From positions 170,428 to 234,427 of the forward strand of contig CAYMXN010000001.1 in the NCBI GenBank assembly GCA_964394435.1: DNA of 64,000 nt. The letters run 5' to 3'. This DNA is from an uncultured Candidatus Saccharibacteria bacterium (GTDB lineage: Bacteria > Patescibacteriota > Minisyncoccia > UBA6257 > 1-14-0-10-44-23). Below, one piece after another: positions 12,173 through 50,156 of the stretch. Position numbers and translations under genes: made by a program. The stretch's first letter is position 1, and every line of letters starts with the position of its first letter. Below the pieces are notes generated by a model that saw only the letters and a list, made by a program, of their open reading frames with translations, searched no databases and was not told where the DNA came from.

Positions 12173-15205
<3,033 letters not shown>

Positions 15206-15371
15206 TACATATTTTTTCTGGTCTTATATGAGCACACACTTAAGAGTGTTCATATGAGATACGGAATTCTAAACTGATCATTCAAGTACTTCATCAAACA
15301 AGTACTTGTACCAATACCCCTAGAGCGCTTCAAACGCTCGTCTGAAAAACCCGTAATTGTCTTTAAGGGTT

Positions 15372-15489
15372 TCTCGGTGATTTAGTTCTGTGTGTCCCAC
15401 CTCTTCCCATTCCGAACAGAGAAGTGAAAGCACAGTTCGCTGATGATACTTACTGCAAACCGCGGTTGGGAAAGTAGGCTTCGCCGGGA
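15372..15489 (+). rRNA. rrf: 5S ribosomal RNA
   Basis: Carries ccgaacagagaagtgaaag and gggaaagtagg blocks. Terminal helix tctcggtg/cgccggga. A terminator-like hairpin plus T-run follows. Confidence 0.85.
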
Positions 15490-15594
15490 TTCCTTTGTAG
15501 AGAATTGCGGGTTTTTTGTTTGACGAAATCTTTTAGATACGATACGTTGAAGAAAGTGGGTAGCGTCTCCTTTCAATTACAAGGGGGTCTACGT

Positions 15595-36274: not shown

Positions 36275-36342
36275 ATCTTATTAGTATATCAAAGAATAAA
36301 TAAGGCCCCCAGGTACGACAGCGTACCTAGGGGCTAGTTCTC

Positions 36343-36639
36343 TTAGCGTCTCATTTGGCGACGCACTTCGGGGTCTTGCAGAAGCATGTCCATGAACTGC
36401 TTCTGCTCCTTGCCGACGGTGCCGGGCGGCTGCAGGAGAAGGATTCCAAAGGCGCGCTGGACGCTCTGCGCGGCTCTGCGCGTATACCCCTGCAAAACGT
36501 CGCGATGCGGCGGTGAATGCATCGCAGTCTTTACGACATGATCGACCGCACCGCGGTCGATCGCCGAGCTTTCGGGGCGAAAGACGTCGTGCAACCCGTC
36601 CTCCGTGTACTTAATTCTCGGCCGAGACGAAACTGACAT
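36343..36639 (-). CDS. Hypothetical protein (GC-rich ORFan)
   Basis: RBS ggaggg. A terminator hairpin (cccccaggtacg...cgtacctagggg) lies downstream. Confidence 0.45.
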   Translation of the reverse strand: MSVSSRPRIKYTEDGLHDVFRPESSAIDRGAVDHVVKTAMHSPPHRDVLQGYTRRAAQSVQRAFGILLLQPPGTVGKEQKQFMDMLLQDPEVRRQMRR

Positions 36640-36766
36640 ACTAACCCTCCAAACTACAGCTAGCCTCGATGCTTCTCGTGTCGAGTCCCATTTCTCGCTG
36701 CGGAAGCATCAATAACTAACTTTTCGAGTATAATACAAAAATCCCGCCTGTAAAGCGGGACTTTGT

Positions 36767-40094: not shown

Positions 40095-40856
40095 CTAGTT
40101 TTTGCTATTTCCGAGAATTCTCCTAAACCAGATACTGATCGCCTCGCCCATAAAACTCATTGAGCGAGCAAACGTGTTTCGCTTTTGGTTATTACACGCC
40201 CAAAAGATCGGAATTTCTTTAATTTTTAGCTTTTTCTTCTTCGCGAGGATCAGCGCCTCAAGGTCAAACGCCCACCCATTTGCCTGAACAAGCGGAAAGA
40301 TGGCGTCCGCGGATGAGGCCGAGAAGCACTTAAATCCACATTGCGTATCTGATATCCCGCGAATGAAAAATAGTTTTGAGAAGAAGCGCCAAATGCGGGC
40401 GCGAAGTTGCTGTGCACTACTTGGTTTTGGGCTCATACTGCTGCCGGAAAGATAACGCGAACCGATTACGATATCGTAAGCGTTGTCTCGCTCGGTCGCA
40501 CTCGCATCACCGCTTGGCGCAAGATATGGGCGCATTTTCAGAAACTCAACAACGGTTGCCGAGTTGTCCGCGTCTATCGCAAGCTTCCAACTTCCTTTTG
40601 CCGCGCTCATTCCTGTGCGTAGTGCGTACCCCCTCCCTCGGTTATCTGGAAGTGCGATTACCTTCAGATTCGTAATCATAGTCGCGAGGCGTTCGACGAT
40701 TTGCGCGGTTTGATCTTCTCCCTTGCTGATAACCGCTATGATTTCATATGAAAAATCTTGCTGTGAGAGATGTCGATCAACATCAATGAGTGTCAGCGGG
40801 AGACGCTTTGCTTCGTTATACGCGGGGATAACAACTGATAAAAATGGACGAGCCAT
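40095..40856 (-). CDS. Family 2 glycosyltransferase (polyprenyl-phosphate glycosyltransferase-like)
   Basis: SVVIPAYNE and DADNS (DxD) motifs. Confidence 0.8.
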   Translation of the reverse strand: MARPFLSVVIPAYNEAKRLPLTLIDVDRHLSQQDFSYEIIAVISKGEDQTAQIVERLATMITNLKVIALPDNRGRGYALRTGMSAAKGSWKLAIDADNSATVVEFLKMRPYLAPSGDASATERDNAYDIVIGSRYLSGSSMSPKPSSAQQLRARIWRFFSKLFFIRGISDTQCGFKCFSASSADAIFPLVQANGWAFDLEALILAKKKKLKIKEIPIFWACNNQKRNTFARSMSFMGEAISIWFRRILGNSKN

Positions 40857-40966
40857 TGGGGTAGAGATATGAATTACGAGTTATGAAGTGCGAACTAAGA
40901 GGCGAGAATAATTATATTGAAAGTATATCACGGGTTGGGCTGATTTTGATGCTTAACCGTACCCTA

Positions 40967-40994
40967 TTGACAAATATTTATAGTGTGCTATAAT
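40967..40994 (+). promoter_or_regulatory. Consensus sigma70 promoter TTGACA-N16-(TGc)TATAAT with extended -10
   Basis: Exact consensus hexamers, seen in the sequence. No ORF lies downstream. Confidence 0.6.
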
Positions 40995-41000
40995 ACTTTT

Positions 41001-41590
41001 ACCGACGTGGATGGGCCCTGAGCCCCTCTCCACGGGCGCGTGTTTTTTGCGATGCGTGTTTTTGAGGTAGGTTGTTCGAGTGATTAGCCCCCGGTGGCCG
41101 TACACTTGAATCCCCTCCTCTGTCCGGGTCGACAACGACTCGGAGGTTCGCGGATACTCGACTTGGTAGGTCGAGTCGGGACGTGGTCTTATCGGACCAA
41201 CCCGCGCAGGTCCTAGAGATAGGGCCGAATTCCTCCTCTGTCCGCTGAGGGGGTACGGTCATCGCCGGGATAGTAGTGGGGTGCGAAAGTAACTCCACGA
41301 CAAAGAGCTATCTCGACCGATGGTTGAATGAGCTTTAGGTAAGCTCTGGGTGAATCGTCAGCACCCTAAATTGAGATGGATTGGCCTGCAACTCCGGGGG
41401 TCAATGTCAACTCAAAGCTAGTCGTGCGAGTCATCGGCGTGTACCAAATGCTACGATGACAGCGACGAACAGGTTTCGTACTCTGCCTGCAGTGTGCGTC
41501 GCAAGTTAACGGGTTAAATTCCCGTCGATGTGCACAAAGAGTGCTCTTCCCCTGGTTGCCGTAAAGCGTAGCCAGGGGATCTTTTTATTC
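41001..41590 (+). ncRNA. Candidate large structured ncRNA (about 590 nt, about 58% GC), class unknown
   Basis: Bracketed by the consensus promoter above and an intrinsic terminator (cccctggtt...agccagggg plus ctttttatt at 41549-41590). No ORF of 60 aa or more on the plus strand. Many internal hairpins and a repeated cctcctctgtccg motif. Confidence 0.35.
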
Positions 41591-42343
41591 GGTTAAGATT
41601 TTATTGCCTTTTTCCGTGATGACGATCGTGTGTTCAAAGTGCGCGGAGTTTTTGCGGTTAGCAGAACCATAGCTTTCGTCCGCAAGCTGGACAACTTCGC
41701 CAGTGCCGATAATAACCATTGGCTCGAGTGCGAGCACCATTCCTGGGACAAGCTTCATCCCCTTACCTGGACGCCCTTCGTTAAATACTGATGGGTCTTC
41801 GTGAAGCTTGGTTCCAATTCCGTGGCCGGTTAATCCCTGCGCAACACAAAAACCTTTTTTCTCAACAAAATCCCCAATCGCAAATCCAATATCACCAAGT
41901 GTGTTGCCTGGTTTAGCTGCTTTAATACCACGTACAAGCGCCTGTTCGGTAACCTCAATAAGCTTTTTATCTTGTTTGGAAATATTACCAATTGGAATCG
42001 TAATTGCGGCATCGGCATAGTATCCTTCGTAAATAACTCCGCAGTCGATACTGATTAGATCACCGTCTTTAATGACACGCTTGCTCGGTACGCCGTGGAC
42101 AACTACGTCGTTTGGTGAAACGCAGAGTGTTGCCGGGTATGGGCGAGTTGCTCCTTCTGGACGATAGTTTAAAAATGCTGGCTTACCTCCCGCGTCTTCA
42201 ATTAGTGAGCGAGCCAGCTCGTCGAGTGCGCTAATAATTACACCCTCTTTCGCGACCGCCTTAATTCGCTTAAGTGTCATTGCTAAAATCGCACCAGCCT
42301 TGGCGATTTTTTCTATTTCAGCTTGAGATTTAATTAACGCCAT
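41585..42343 (-). CDS. map: Methionine aminopeptidase type I
   Basis: M24 pita-bread fold motifs. 252 aa. Confidence 0.92.
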   Translation of the reverse strand: MALIKSQAEIEKIAKAGAILAMTLKRIKAVAKEGVIISALDELARSLIEDAGGKPAFLNYRPEGATRPYPATLCVSPNDVVVHGVPSKRVIKDGDLISIDCGVIYEGYYADAAITIPIGNISKQDKKLIEVTEQALVRGIKAAKPGNTLGDIGFAIGDFVEKKGFCVAQGLTGHGIGTKLHEDPSVFNEGRPGKGMKLVPGMVLALEPMVIIGTGEVVQLADESYGSANRKNSAHFEHTIVITEKGNKILTE

Positions 42344-44794: not shown

Positions 44795-45934
44795 TTATCG
44801 AACTTCAGCGCCAAATTGCTTTTTCGTTTCTTCGATTACTCTGTTTTGGATCGGCTCAACTTCTTCAGTGAGAAGCGTGCGCTCGTTGCTGCGATAAATT
44901 ATGCGATAGGTGTAGCTCATCTTGTCGGCACCAAATTTTTTATCATTCTCGTACTTATCAAGGAGTGAAACTTCTTCGACGAGCTCGCCACCGATTTCAC
45001 GAATTAAATCGAAGTAGTCATTTGGAACAAATTTCTTACTCACCACAAACGAGATGTCGCGAGTGATTGGCGGATACTTACTTACTTCTTTAAATTTATT
45101 TCCGAGCTTGAGCTGTTTTACTACGCGCGGATCAGTTGACCAGAGCAAGCGAATATCTGGGAGCTCCATGCTGATAATTGCCAAGCGCTCTAGACCAAAT
45201 CCGAACGCCCACCCGTTGTACCCTTCGAGTCCAAAGTTTTTCAGTACTGATTTTTTCGGCATACCTCCACCTAAAATCTCAATCCACCGATCGCCGATTT
45301 TTACCTCAACTTGAAGTGATGGGTCGGTGTACGGAAATGTATCATCAAGAAAACGATACTCAATATTTTTCCCAAAAAGCGTTTCAACAATTTCTGATAA
45401 TACGTTTCGCAGTGAGTCGAGTGGCATCACGCCCATAGAGTCCGGTTGTAAGTACCACGCACCGAACTGATGGAAGACGTTCATGTGACGATTATCAATT
45501 TCATCTTTGCGATAGACTTTTCCATAACACGTAGTTCCTACCGCCTCCCCTTTTGCGATTCGATTTTTAACATCAGCATCGTTGAGGTAGTAATACCACA
45601 TCACCGTGTCGTGTGTACGCAAAATATTTTTATCGTTTACATAGTACGTGTCAGACTTACTACGCGCTGGGTGGTCTGCAGGAAAATCAAATAAGTCGAA
45701 TGTAATACTTGCTGGTACTACCTCTGGAATGACAATGTTATCTAAATTTTTGAGCGCGTTAGTAGCTCGAGCTCGCGCGACAATTTCATACAATGGACTT
45801 TCCGGAGTACGAGAAAGATCGGGCATCGCTAGATAGCGCTTTTCACGAAGCGCTTCTGCGTCGGTTCGCTTTTCTAAATCCTTAAGTGCGGTCGCTTGAT
45901 CTTGTGTATCAATAATGATTTCTTTGTGTGACAT
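44795..45934 (-). CDS. pheS: Phenylalanyl-tRNA synthetase alpha-type catalytic subunit fused to a C-terminal FDX-ACB-like anticodon-binding domain
   Basis: Class II motifs FPYTDPS and GFGLERLAI, followed by about 95 aa (YPPITRDISFVV...SYTYRIIYRS...TLTEEEV) that resemble the FDX-ACB domain of PheT and mitochondrial PheRS. Confidence 0.85.
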   Translation of the reverse strand: MSHKEIIIDTQDQATALKDLEKRTDAEALREKRYLAMPDLSRTPESPLYEIVARARATNALKNLDNIVIPEVVPASITFDLFDFPADHPARSKSDTYYVNDKNILRTHDTVMWYYYLNDADVKNRIAKGEAVGTTCYGKVYRKDEIDNRHMNVFHQFGAWYLQPDSMGVMPLDSLRNVLSEIVETLFGKNIEYRFLDDTFPYTDPSLQVEVKIGDRWIEILGGGMPKKSVLKNFGLEGYNGWAFGFGLERLAIISMELPDIRLLWSTDPRVVKQLKLGNKFKEVSKYPPITRDISFVVSKKFVPNDYFDLIREIGGELVEEVSLLDKYENDKKFGADKMSYTYRIIYRSNERTLLTEEVEPIQNRVIEETKKQFGAEVR

Positions 45935-45953
45935 ATGCGTTATTTTTGATTAC

Positions 45954-46028
45954 TGGTGGCTGGGGAGAGGATCGAACTCTCGACCTTGGCCTTATGAAAG
46001 CCCTGCTCTACCACTGAGCTACCCAGCC
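45954..46028 (-). tRNA. tRNA-Met (anticodon CAT), elongator-type G1-C72; could also be tRNA-Ile2 (lysidine)
   Basis: Manual fold gives acceptor GGCTGGG/CCCAGCC, D arm GCTC-AGTGGTA-GAGC, anticodon loop TTCATAA, T arm GAGAG-TTCGATC-CTCTC. CCA is encoded. Confidence 0.8.
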
Positions 46029-46120
46029 AGTACGTATACGATAATAGCGATTTCTCCTTCCTTTGTAAATAAAAGCCCCGGGCCGAAGCGCAAGGCTTGA
46101 GTCGGGGCTTGTAAATCTAC

Positions 46121-46555
46121 TTAGTGCTGCGGAATTCCAGAAATGAACGAGATGAGCCAGACGCCCCAGGCGACGAGCGAAAAGCGGTTGAAGAGTTCGG
46201 CGCAACGGCCGTGTGTTCGTAATGTCGCATCGAGTGCCCAGCCGAAGTGCAGACCCATAATGAGTACCGAGGCGAGCCCGGTGGTCGTGTGGAGATCCCA
46301 CGTCCACCCCTTGGAGTTTAGGCTACAGACAAAGATGGTCGCGCTCACGTCGAGTGTGAGTGCGATACCAAACACCCACAGCATCCAGCGACGCAGCTCT
46401 AACACCTTCTTCCGCTGAATGAAGTGAGTCCAGATGACCGTCGAGTACAGGAGAAGCGCCACGACAAACAGCAGCTCGAGACGGGGCATAGTGGATTCCT
46501 TTCGATGAACTAAGTGCAGGTTAGCGCAAGGTGGACTTTTGGGCAATCTTTTCAA
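46121..46555 (-). CDS. Hypothetical membrane protein (GC-rich); likely start at the internal Met MPRLELLF
   Basis: Several TM helices. A minus-strand terminator (agccccg...cggggct plus U-run) follows at about 46045-46110. Confidence 0.45.
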   Translation of the reverse strand: MKRLPKSPPCANLHLVHRKESTMPRLELLFVVALLLYSTVIWTHFIQRKKVLELRRWMLWVFGIALTLDVSATIFVCSLNSKGWTWDLHTTTGLASVLIMGLHFGWALDATLRTHGRCAELFNRFSLVAWGVWLISFISGIPQH

Positions 46556-46692
46556 GAATGACGCTTATTCGATGAGTTCAGAACAAGCCGGACTTGTTCC
46601 CGTTTTGTCTGCGAGAATTTGAGCAGACACAAAACGCAATGCCGCCTTAAAGCGGTAACCGGGAACCGGTGAAAGTCTGCGTCTGACACACA

Positions 46693-46722
46693 AAACCCAC
46701 CTTTCTGTGAGGTGGGTTTTGA
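46693..46722. terminator. Bidirectional terminator hairpin (aaaacccacct-ttctgtg-aggtgggtttt) downstream of tRNA-Asp
   Basis: Perfect 11-bp stem with flanking A-run and T-run. Confidence 0.55.
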
Positions 46723-46726
46723 TATG

Positions 46727-46800
46727 CGCGGGCGGCCGGACTTGAACCGGTGACCTTCCCCGTGACAGGGGGACGCTCTAACCAGCTGAGCTACGCCCGC
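46727..46800 (-). tRNA. tRNA-Asp (anticodon GTC)
   Basis: Manual fold gives acceptor GCGGGCG/CGCCCGC, D arm GCTC-AGCTGGTTA-GAGC, anticodon loop CTGTCAC, T arm ACCGG-TTCAAGT-CCGGC. CCA is not encoded. Confidence 0.85.
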
Positions 46801-47032
46801 AGTTCCTTTGCCTTATTGCTTTGTTGTTTCGGGTTCGCCGTATGCTATCGCTGATATACGGCTTCACCCTTACGCCTCGCACTAAGCCAAAGACTTCAGA
46901 TATATACTTCCCTGCTTCTCGCAGGTACACAATATACTACTAAAACCTTAGCATTTTTTCAACTAACTTGCCAAGGGTTATAAATCGTTTTATTATATCT
47001 TCGGCATTAATCCTGGACTAAAGGAGGTTGCG

Positions 47033-47812
47033 ATGACTAAGCTCCGAGGTGTTCTTGTCGGGAAACCGGGCGATTTTCGTCCGAATCACTACCCGAGTCG
47101 CGAGAAACTCATCTCTTTTGTTGCCCAGCTACTTCCTCCTGGTGTTCGAAAGGTGTACTTCACTCGCATCGAGGGTACAAGTACTAAGCTTGCGAGTCAG
47201 GACAGCTTCGTGGCGACGACGCCGGCGAATTGGTTTCTTGAAAGTAGAGATACCGTTGACGGTGCCGTCATTCACGGGCGAAATTCGGCGATATTTGTCG
47301 CAAATGCCGATTGTCCCCTGCTAGCCGTTCATTCTGGCGACAAGCTGATGGTGCTTCATTGCGCGTTTCGTTGCTTGGTTGGCGAAAATGGCGAGAGCAT
47401 TATTCTCGCGTCGCTTATGAAGCACTTCCCTGATCCACGGATGATTGACAACATCTTTTTTGGATTCGGGGCCGGCCCTTGCTGCTTTGGACAGAAAGAG
47501 TCGCTCGAAAACCCCGATATTCGTAAAAACTTGCCCGTCCAGGCTATTCATAGGGCGACGTGTGGTCCCCGCAAGGGTAGCCCCTCGGTCGATCTGTGTC
47601 GCTTGGCAGTGATGCATTTAGAGCAAGTATTTGCGGGGACTGCTGGGCTACGACCGGGAGTCGCGAAAATCGATGCGAGATGTACCGCCTGCGAAGAGCG
47701 GGATAATGGTGGAGCTGGCGCATACTGGTCGCATGTCTGGGACGGCAGACCAGTTCCCGGAAAGTGTGAAACAGTTGCTGGGAGAAACGGCGCCTTCTTC
47801 TGGATCTCCTGA
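47033..47812 (+). CDS. YfiH/PgeF (DUF152, LACC1-like) family protein, tentative
   Basis: VANADCPLLAVH resembles the family motif ADC-P-L. Conserved Cys/His residues. Strong RBS aaggagg. GC-rich. Confidence 0.5.
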   Translation: MTKLRGVLVGKPGDFRPNHYPSREKLISFVAQLLPPGVRKVYFTRIEGTSTKLASQDSFVATTPANWFLESRDTVDGAVIHGRNSAIFVANADCPLLAVHSGDKLMVLHCAFRCLVGENGESIILASLMKHFPDPRMIDNIFFGFGAGPCCFGQKESLENPDIRKNLPVQAIHRATCGPRKGSPSVDLCRLAVMHLEQVFAGTAGLRPGVAKIDARCTACEERDNGGAGAYWSHVWDGRPVPGKCETVAGRNGAFFWIS

Positions 47813-49258: not shown

Positions 49259-49330
49259 CGCGGGGTAGAGCAGTGGTAGCTCGTCTGGCTCATAACCAGA
49301 AGGTCGGGGGTTCAATTCCCTCCCCCGCAA
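49259..49330 (+). tRNA. tRNA-Met (anticodon CAT), initiator-like (C1 x A72 mismatch)
   Basis: Manual fold gives acceptor CGCGGGG/CCCCGCA with an unpaired 1:72, U8, D arm GAGC-AGTGGTA-GCTC, anticodon loop CTCATAA, T arm GGGGG-TTCAATT-CCCTC. Only two G-C pairs at the base of the anticodon stem. CCA is not encoded. Confidence 0.8.
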
Positions 49331-49418
49331 CTCTTCGTCGCCTTACTCCTCAGAGTCTTCGACTTCGCCTTTAAGGCGACGAAGACACTGAGCGAAGCGA
49401 AGTGATACAATTTAAGAG

Positions 49419-49664
49419 ATGCGTTTCTTTGTCTATATCCTCGAATGTGCCGATGGTTCTTTTTATGTTGGCTACACTAATGATTTAAATAAGCGAATTA
49501 GGCAACACAATGAATCAGATTATGGCTCGTGGTACACCAAACTTCGCCGGCCAGTTTTTTTAAAATATTCTGAAGAATTTTCAACTCTCGTAGTGGCTCG
49601 GCGAAGAGAGCGTGAAATTAAAGGCTGGAGGAGGGAGAAAAAACGAGCCTTATTTGAGAAGTAA
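49419..49664 (+). CDS. Second stand-alone GIY-YIG domain protein (UPF0213-like)
   Basis: FFVYILECADGSFYVGYTNDLNKRIRQHN signature. Paralogue of 34823..35086. Confidence 0.7.
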   Translation: MRFFVYILECADGSFYVGYTNDLNKRIRQHNESDYGSWYTKLRRPVFLKYSEEFSTLVVARRREREIKGWRREKKRALFEK

Positions 49665-49711: not shown

Positions 49712-50121
49712 GAAAAAGGGCGTGTCTGCGCTTCGCAACACCCCCCGCAATACAGGGGAAAAAATCACCCTACGCACTCCCCGCCGAGCGAGTTCGTGAG
49801 CTGTCGCTTAATTTATCACTCACTCTTAGATACCTTCCTCGGTGCAGAATGCAAACTTAGCTGTTACATATAATTTAAAAGGGCGCAACCAGATCTCTCC
49901 AGTTACGCCCAATACTCCTTTATCTTTACGCGACCGAAATTGATCGCGCTCCTATTCTTGTCCGAAGAATTTCACTTCGGACTTGCGCTTCGGCCGAGAA
50001 TAGGACTTCCGGCCTGCAAGGTAGGGCGGGATTGCCCAAAGCCAATCCCTCGACTGGACGTTCCCATCCGTCCAATCCCCGTGACCGAGTGGTTCAGGCT
50101 TGAGGCCTTTTACCACTTGTC
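49712..50121 (-). ncRNA. Candidate structured ncRNA (about 410 nt, GC-rich), class unknown
   Basis: Consensus promoter on the minus strand (TTGACA at 50151-50156 plus-coordinates, N17, TATAAT at 50128-50133). No ORF. Terminator-like hairpin gggtgt...acgccc plus U-run near 49712-49745. Confidence 0.3.
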
Positions 50122-50127
50122 TTTTCC

Positions 50128-50156
50128 ATTATAGCATATAGCAATATACTTGTCAA
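50128..50156 (-). promoter_or_regulatory. Consensus sigma70 promoter TTGACA-N17-TATAAT (minus strand)
   Basis: Exact consensus hexamers, seen in the sequence. Confidence 0.55.

Follow-up and report, generated by a model that had tools for sequence, protein, structure and literature searches.

Does the GC-rich, apparently noncoding interval between map and a family-2 glycosyltransferase gene (GT2) make an RNA, and if it does, what kind of RNA is it? A sequence-only reading of the window (the whole stretch of DNA analyzed, 64 kb in length) had proposed that this interval is a large structured noncoding RNA that has a promoter and a terminator to itself and is distinct from the known housekeeping families. 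Searches against Rfam, examination of the ORFs, and tests for covariation supported that proposal, and positions 40967 to 41587 are very probably a real structured noncoding RNA gene. The reading that we prefer, with a probability of roughly 0.6, is that the gene specifies a structured RNA that is stable, strongly expressed, and trans-acting and that belongs to a new, narrowly distributed family; both its expression and its function are predictions.

The locus, on the plus strand, comprises a sigma-70 promoter, an ORF-free stretch of about 587 nt, and an intrinsic terminator (Table 1). The promoter, previously described as near-perfect, matches the consensus at 12 of 12 positions and has the TG extension as well (TTGACA-N16-TGcTATAAT). 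Only two promoters in the window match at 12 of 12 positions, each preceding noncoding DNA, and by our own arithmetic approximately 0.02 such sites would be expected by chance on both strands. A conserved motif, CTTTTACC, lies between the -10 element and the first helix. The longest plus-strand ORFs at the locus encode 40 and 42 amino acids, and none of 60 amino acids or more lies between 40995 and 41584, as had been claimed. The reported length of about 590 nt and the absence of ORFs were borne out, but the GC content had been overestimated: it is 55.4% for positions 41001 to 41587, not 58%, compared with 46.8% for the whole window and 49.2% for the 23S rRNA gene within it. The terminator consists of a 12-pair stem (41548 to 41579) followed by TCTTTTTATT. 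It had been described as abutting the map stop codon, and its T-run even overlaps that codon (41585 to 41587, TTA on the plus strand). The minimum free energy of the window copy is -254 kcal/mol (z = -6.0 versus shuffled sequences).

Table 1. Positions of the predicted elements of the RNA gene and of the adjoining divergent spacer in the window
Feature	Position	Strand	Details
Divergent spacer with extended -10 promoter TGaTATACT (glycosyltransferase-greA-lysS-serS)	40857..40966	-	Alignment A8
Sigma-70 promoter	40967..40994	+	-35 TTGACA 40967-40972; 16-nt spacer; extended -10 TGcTATAAT 40986-40994
Inferred transcription start (A, 7 nt past the -10)	41001	+	Promoter geometry only
5'-terminal irregular hairpin (nt 1-41) and U-run	41001..41048	+	Apical stem 41013-41016/41022-41025; U-run 41043-41048
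Private 96-nt insertion with two extra hairpins	41049..41144	+	Absent from 5/5 relatives
Junction domain	41145..41264	+	Helices 4-8; 11 pairs changed on both sides (A7)
Variable arm with GNRA-type tip	41265..41315	+	Helix 9; GAAA in the window, GUAA or GAAA in relatives
Central/3' domain	41326..41475	+	Helices 10-17; 17 pairs changed on both sides
Long 67-nt 3' hairpin with conserved internal loop CCUGCA / AA	41478..41544	+	Helices 18-20
Intrinsic terminator	41548..41587	+	Stem 41548-41560/41565-41579; T-run to ~41587; kept in all copies

Five further distinct copies of the gene (L083, L084, L087, L088, and L138) were recovered from metagenome-assembled genomes (MAGs) of the same clade and from metagenome contigs. 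The copies were found by looking up proteins in the same 90%-identity clusters, and L138, the most divergent copy, was found through a search for GT2 homologues. The L088 copy is identical to L089 and L090, and L139 is a partial copy that matches L088 over the whole of the shared stretch. Relatives carrying the RNA gene have Map proteins that cluster with the Map of the window at 90% identity. All copies keep the TTGACA-N16-TGcTATAAT promoter, with hexamers identical in 6/6, as well as the spacing to the first helix, the 5' hairpin that begins at +1, and the terminator. The RNA is about 587 nt long in the window copy and 483 to 510 nt long in the relatives.

Flanking proteins place the window in the Patescibacteria (Paceibacteria-like MAGs), and the best GTDB homologue of its Map is 63% identical. 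The clade that bears the RNA is isolated in current databases because the identity of GT2 homologues drops from 91% to 56%. Nothing similar to the RNA was found within ±4 kb of map in 80 other GTDB genomes encoding Map relatives, whether with single-sequence nhmmer, an nhmmer profile, or a covariance model of the junction domain (R1). Over 749 kb of loci, R1 matched only the copies from this clade. One metagenome scan with the conserved island TGNGTGAATN{4,9}CACNCTNAATTGA gave 10 matches, all by chance and without profile similarity, and scans of viral contigs with six conserved islands gave 0 to 29 matches each, none with profile similarity. No homologue was returned by blastn against phage and plasmid collections, no second copy of the gene was found in the window, and full-text literature searches yielded no description of such an RNA. 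The RNA family is provisionally considered to be narrowly distributed, with six known copies in one small clade of Patescibacteria; this distribution is provisional because scans with exact islands miss diverged relatives.

Conservation with covariation was among the checks that the sequence-only reading proposed, and the five other copies display strong compensatory variation on the plus strand. The principal alignment (A7) contained six sequences, with the private insertion of the window copy cut out by hand so that MAFFT aligned the core; a second alignment (A3) contained four sequences and kept the window copy in full. Three other MAFFT alignments (A4, A5, and A6) were dropped because the private insertion caused either the 5' hairpin of the window copy or the helix at 41156 to 41176 to be misplaced. 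In A7, 125 pairs were predicted in 21 helices, and 95.6% of the 745 cells were paired, compared with 34 to 41% in slid controls. Thirty-five of these 125 pairs had changed on both sides, versus 14.6 ± 2.8 in shuffles (0 of 500 reached 35) and 3 to 5 in slid controls; as the six sequences come from one narrow clade, these counts are not counts of independent events, and the consensus structure was derived from the same alignment that was used to test it. Results with A3 were similar: 133 predicted pairs, 95.1% paired, with 30 changed on both sides versus 12.7 ± 2.5 in shuffles and 0 to 7 in slid controls.

Paired cells included 67 G-U but only 10 A-C combinations, and the alifold energy was -145.5 kcal/mol for the plus strand versus -91.6 kcal/mol for the reverse complement, which is 54 kcal/mol worse. 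Therefore, the plus strand is the folded, functional strand, and a minus-strand RNA was rejected on the basis of the same asymmetry and the weaker folding of the reverse complement. Between the window and its relatives, fourfold-degenerate sites in map and GT2 are 41 to 56% identical, which is near saturation, and the RNA is 63 to 70% identical, with invariant islands. Insertions and deletions among the RNA copies are not multiples of three. The locus thus combines compensatory structure on a single strand, a promoter and a terminator of its own, and the lack of a conserved ORF, which are generic attributes of structured noncoding RNA genes.

In the consensus model, the compensatory substitutions demonstrate that the predicted plus-strand transcript folds into about 20 conserved helices, laid out as a 5' hairpin, a junction domain, a variable GNRA arm, four hairpins, a long 3' hairpin, and the terminator. 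The 5' hairpin has a folding energy of -17.5 to -19.6 kcal/mol in 6/6 copies, and U7 or CAU5 comes right after it in each; its helices 2 and 3 are 94 to 100% paired, with one compensatory pair (A7). The hairpin and U-run, as modeled, could be an end-protecting structure, a partial terminator, or both. The private insertion that follows in the window copy was built partly from local duplications (GCGTGTTTTT occurs twice, and there is another CCTCCTCTGTCCG); the second GCGTGTTTTT lies within it, as does the first CCTCCTCTGTCCG copy (41114 to 41126). The 13-nt motif cctcctctgtccg, previously noted as repeated, does occur exactly twice, at 41114 (inside the private insertion) and 41232, but the relatives conserve only the second occurrence. 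A separate observation is that GUCCG in the insertion (41122 to 41126) could pair with 41151 to 41155 in place of the conserved 41240 to 41244, giving an alternative fold.

The junction domain is organized by a long-range helix (41151 to 41155 with 41240 to 41244) that encloses hairpins at 41156 to 41176, 41177 to 41204, and 41210 to 41225. The strands of this closing helix are CGGAU and GUCCG in the window and CAGCU and GGCUG in the relatives. The hairpin ctcgacttggtaggtcgag, cited in the sequence-only reading as an example of the many hairpins, lies at 41157 to 41175 and corresponds to helix 5 of A7, where it is backed by compensatory changes. Beside the closing helix is an invariant unpaired CCUCC (41232 to 41236), and a small hairpin at 41247 to 41260 carries an invariant GGGGGUAC in its loop. 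CCUCC and GGGGGUAC, which as invariant elements can show no covariation, could form a pseudoknot in the modeled fold. The apical part of the variable arm differs in length and sequence among the copies, its tetraloops having been read directly from the sequences. The central domain contains hairpins at 41330 to 41346, 41348 to 41366, 41371 to 41415, and 41421 to 41466, joined by the near-invariant strands GAAU, CUAAAUUGA, UCAAAGCUAGU, and GAACAGGU. At its end, GGU (41472 to 41474) may pair with ACC at the predicted 5' terminus (41001 to 41003); both are invariant. The 24 pairs of the 3' hairpin are 95 to 97% paired, with 5 changed on both sides, and terminator helix 21 is 98.7% paired in the six-sequence alignment.

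With Rfam 15 at gathering thresholds, the whole window yielded only the 23S and 5S rRNAs and three tRNAs. Relaxed Rfam runs were made at E ≤ 10 on 901 nt of the window and on the 491-nt L088 copy and at E ≤ 5 on L088 plus L084. At E ≤ 10, all 4,227 families returned only terminator look-alikes (SpF22, NsiR1, and anti-hemB) on these 491- to 901-nt sequences, with scores of 13 to 24 bits versus gathering scores of 39 to 55. RNase P RNA (RF00010 and RF00011) was not listed in the relaxed runs on the window, L088, or L084, and direct reading of the six aligned copies revealed the P4 strands GGAAAGUCC / ACAGAA..GGCUUA in none of them. No tmRNA was found in the window by ARAGORN, and at the locus there was no Rfam match to tmRNA (RF00023), no tRNA-like pairing of the ends, and no conserved tag frame. 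A hairpin resembling a T-arm (41509 to 41525) has a loop of 4 to 7 nt that varies between copies, and L088 has a 2-nt deletion in the only candidate tag frame. SRP RNA and 6S RNA had no Rfam match either, and the consensus fold is multibranched rather than a rod. There was no covariance-model match to OLE, ROOL, GOLLD, raiA, or other large noncoding RNAs in Rfam, and no model match to group I or group II introns; the ends of the RNA are a promoter-proximal hairpin and a terminator, not the halves of a tRNA, rRNA, or coding sequence. As Rfam model RF00028 can fail to detect group I introns of Patescibacteria (PMC13011429), a tRNA or tmRNA interrupted by such an intron was considered as well, and was rejected because the ends are not tRNA-like. 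A riboswitch, T-box, or other leader was also rejected because the terminator faces the convergent map gene (an MBL-fold gene in L083) and no plus-strand gene follows. Thus, the absence of RNase P, tmRNA, and SRP signatures in the sequence-only reading agrees with Rfam and ARAGORN, and the Rfam comparison that it recommended produced no significant match to any known family. As judged from sequence comparison, the RNA is a member of no Rfam family and appears to represent a family not yet described.

The genes around the locus are arranged as serS, lysS, greA, and GT2 on the minus strand, the RNA gene on the plus strand, and then map and adk, with map convergent and GT2 divergent relative to the RNA gene. 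No plus-strand gene lies downstream in any copy. The GT2 promoter (TGaTATACT) and the RNA promoter stand back to back in 6/6 copies, and CCGTGATATACT is conserved in 6/6 copies approximately 60 to 75 nt upstream of the GT2 start codon (alignment A8). An MBL-fold gene separates map from the RNA terminator in L083 and L084, where the terminator abuts the MBL stop codon rather than that of map. In the outgroup L086, whose Map is 66% identical, map is followed on the same strand by an MBL-fold gene and GT2, with a 7-nt gap that leaves too little space for the RNA gene, and L085 (Map 75% identical) has a TrpR-like gene at the junction instead of the RNA gene. These occupants of the junction in relatives and outgroups indicate that the RNA gene entered a variable junction of a once codirectional string of genes, in the opposite orientation. 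GT2 is now served by a separate, conserved extended -10 promoter. More generally, what lies between map and the glycosyltransferase gene varies among relatives: a gene for an MBL-fold hydrolase, a TrpR-like gene, the RNA gene, or some combination of them (L083, 4761 to 5408; L085, 2533 to 2877; L086, 1039 to 1692).

One alternative is that the gene encodes an RNase P, tmRNA, SRP, or 6S RNA so extremely diverged that it escapes standard models. Among complete genomes of candidate phyla radiation (CPR) bacteria, 10 of 35 RNase P RNAs were missed at default Infernal thresholds, with helices missing or extended (PMC8172020). The size, GC excess, and consensus promoter of the locus, and its neighborhood of adk, map, greA, lysS, serS, and tRNAs, would fit such an RNA, and no RNase P RNA, tmRNA, or SRP RNA was detected anywhere in the 64-kb window. 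However, the window is 64 kb of a 320-kb contig, and the canonical genes can lie elsewhere. In addition, no RNase P, tmRNA, SRP, or 6S model appeared at E ≤ 10, a level at which scores of about 10 to 14 bits are listed; P4 strands, a tRNA-like domain, and a conserved tag ORF are all absent; and relatives with 66 to 75% identical Map lack the gene at this site, with none within 4 kb of map in the 80 genomes searched. A diverged housekeeping RNA is therefore very improbable. The locus is even less likely, to the point of being barely credible, to encode one or more small proteins. Beyond the 40- and 42-amino-acid ORFs, a short ORF whose start lies at nt 9 to 11 opens with G-P-E-P in 5 of 6 copies and G-L-E-P in L088, yet no ORF is kept in length or sequence: GPEP is the 5' hairpin read as codons, its continuations of 16 to 46 amino acids are unrelated, 1- to 2-nt insertions and deletions fall within the candidate frames, and no Shine-Dalgarno sequence precedes the candidate ORFs. 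The check for translation suggested at the outset consequently revealed no small ORF conserved across the copies, and comparison of the copies establishes that the predicted RNA encodes no conserved peptide and precedes no gene.

It is improbable that the role of the unit is mainly transcriptional, in which case head-on transcription would insulate the flanking operon or lower its expression, through colliding polymerases or antisense pairing, and the RNA product would be secondary. The clade has an opposite-facing RNA gene where L086 has map, the MBL-fold gene, and GT2 codirectional with a 7-nt gap, every copy has a terminator that overlaps the convergent gene's stop codon, and the glycosyltransferase-greA-lysS-serS genes have gained a conserved extended -10 promoter of their own, all of which could be expected from such a role. 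However, interference needs only a promoter, which leaves unexplained the approximately 20 compensated helices, the 95.6% pairing at a time when neutral sites are near saturation, and the invariant single-stranded islands, and the RNA and map mRNA overlap by only a few nucleotides. Equally doubtful is the possibility that the functional product is a 5' RNA of about 47 nt, with the long RNA made by conditional, attenuator-gated read-through. The hairpin and U-run at +1 to +48 resemble a terminator and could end most transcription ahead of the structured body; in 6/6 copies, the hairpin begins at the exact +1, runs straight into U7 or CAU5, and is better conserved than any other part of the locus. 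However, the hairpin has nothing upstream of it from which an antiterminator could form, and in L088 the U-run has shrunk to CAUUUUU. Furthermore, the downstream 440 nt show clear selection on structure and close with a second terminator, stronger than the first, and hence the long form must be made and must matter. The variability of the site also raises the possibility of a mobile-element remnant or cargo, such as an ORF-less, intron-like ribozyme or an element-borne RNA. Inserts at the map-GT2 junction differ among relatives (the MBL-fold gene, the TrpR-like gene, or the RNA), the RNA gene is limited to one clade with a GC content above that of the genome, and introns that evade RF00028 are known in Patescibacteria (PMC13011429). 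This origin is nevertheless highly improbable considering that the gene has a consensus promoter at the right distance and a terminator of its own, that it interrupts no host gene and is not bordered by tRNA halves, that no recombinase, reverse transcriptase, or nuclease gene is nearby, that a repeat scan of 40850 to 41650 revealed no flanking repeats, and that neither a second copy in the window nor a match in the phage, plasmid, and viral collections was found.

The RNA can be compared with several large bacterial RNAs. Like OLE RNA (RF01071), it is about 600 nt long, ORF-free, rich in hairpins with highly conserved single strands between them, and found in one bacterial lineage, and the function of OLE was long unknown. 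It differs in belonging to another phylum, in having no model match at the thresholds used and no recognized partner-protein genes alongside, and in comprising six copies in one clade. ROOL and GOLLD are likewise large, elaborate, stand-alone noncoding RNAs of unknown function; unlike them, the RNA described here has no model match, no phage or viral homologue, no adjoining tRNA or prophage genes, and, as read from the consensus, no conserved palindromic loop that would suggest self-assembly. ROOL, GOLLD, and OLE form RNA-only homo-oligomeric complexes (PMC12286853), and OLE works as a ribonucleoprotein (PMC9723947). With the RNase P RNAs of CPR bacteria it shares the character of a GC-rich, presumably stable RNA of several hundred nucleotides with lineage-specific helix extensions that default annotation misses. 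However, those RNAs were recovered with lowered thresholds and had kept their core motifs (PMC8172020), whereas the RNA of the window gave no such match at E ≤ 10 and has no P4 strands. Its likeness to tmRNA, an abundant RNA of several hundred nucleotides, lies in its several predicted helices and possible pseudoknot, and it differs in being negative with both ARAGORN and Rfam and in lacking tRNA-like ends and a tag frame.

Under our preferred reading of a stable, trans-acting RNA of a new family, the consensus promoter would make the RNA abundant, and the hairpins at +1 and at the terminator would protect both ends and allow a stable RNA to accumulate. The RNA would act in trans through its fold, most likely by scaffolding one protein or several, and the invariant single-stranded islands would be its contact or active sites. 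We infer this scaffold, or ribonucleoprotein, mechanism from the anatomy of the RNA and from analogy with OLE, and the chances that the RNA is a trans-acting scaffold or catalyst rather than a cis-acting or antisense device seem about even. CCUCC, which resembles an anti-Shine-Dalgarno sequence, and GGGGGUAC, which resembles a Shine-Dalgarno sequence, might pair with each other in a pseudoknot or might contact mRNA or the 3' end of 16S rRNA, although any link of the RNA to translation is unlikely. In addition, a short RNA of about 47 nt may be released at the U-run that follows the 5' hairpin. A bolder and quite unlikely proposal is that the RNA is the founding member of a new large bacterial RNA class with an activity of its own (ribozyme, self-assembling, or ribosome contacting), acquired by one lineage of ultrasmall episymbionts, in which the invariant CCUCC, GGGGGUAC, and joining strands would be the active or binding core.

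Most large bacterial RNAs of known function carry out fundamental biochemistry, as exemplified by the ribosome, RNase P, tmRNA, and self-splicing introns. Distribution in a single clade and absence from the syntenic site in closer outgroups are unusual for an RNA with a fundamental role. The narrow known distribution tempers the importance of the finding, and the RNA may prove to be a regulator specific to this lineage and of purely local interest. Bacterial RNAs that are both large and intricately folded are nevertheless rare, and the orphans OLE, ROOL, GOLLD, and raiA have lately yielded unexpected architectures. The host genome is in the 1-Mb class, assuming a typical CPR size, with little room for useless DNA, and this RNA has one of the two best promoters of the 64-kb window and has kept its fold while neutral sites neared saturation. 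If expressed as predicted, it would be a tractable new target of 483 to 587 nt with a clear domain layout, suited to structure determination, partner pull-down, and the discovery of function in the little-understood Patescibacteria.

Several other features of the window merit mention. The only other 12/12 promoter (TTGACA-17-TGcTATAAT, 50156 to 50128) starts a second orphan RNA candidate on the minus strand at 49872 to 50156, in which about 245 ORF-free nt follow the promoter and end at a 13-pair terminator (49910 to 49881). Its minimum free energy is -112 kcal/mol (z = -7.4), and it has no Rfam match at E ≤ 10. GC-rich gaps at 36275 to 36766, 45900 to 47050, and 49872 to 50121 were checked as possible sites of the missing housekeeping RNAs, the last being the orphan candidate just described. 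The first was rejected because it holds a 98-amino-acid ORF; this ORF (36343 to 36639, minus strand) has a Shine-Dalgarno sequence and lies in a patch of 60 to 64% GC compared with a genome average of 47%, which may be foreign DNA. In the second, Rfam found only two tRNAs, also at E ≤ 1 for the GC-rich (55 to 60%) segment at 46121 to 46555 on the minus strand, which lies between tRNA-Met and tRNA-Asp and contains a 144-amino-acid ORF. The 23S and 5S rRNA genes are at 12194 to 15490, with no 16S gene detected in the 64 kb, an arrangement in keeping with reports that rRNA genes are unlinked in CPR bacteria (PMC8172020). An 81-amino-acid ORF at 49419 to 49664 on the plus strand, with a GIY-YIG-like N terminus (MRFFVYILECADGSFYVGYTNDL...), adjoins another tRNA-Met gene (49259 to 49331).
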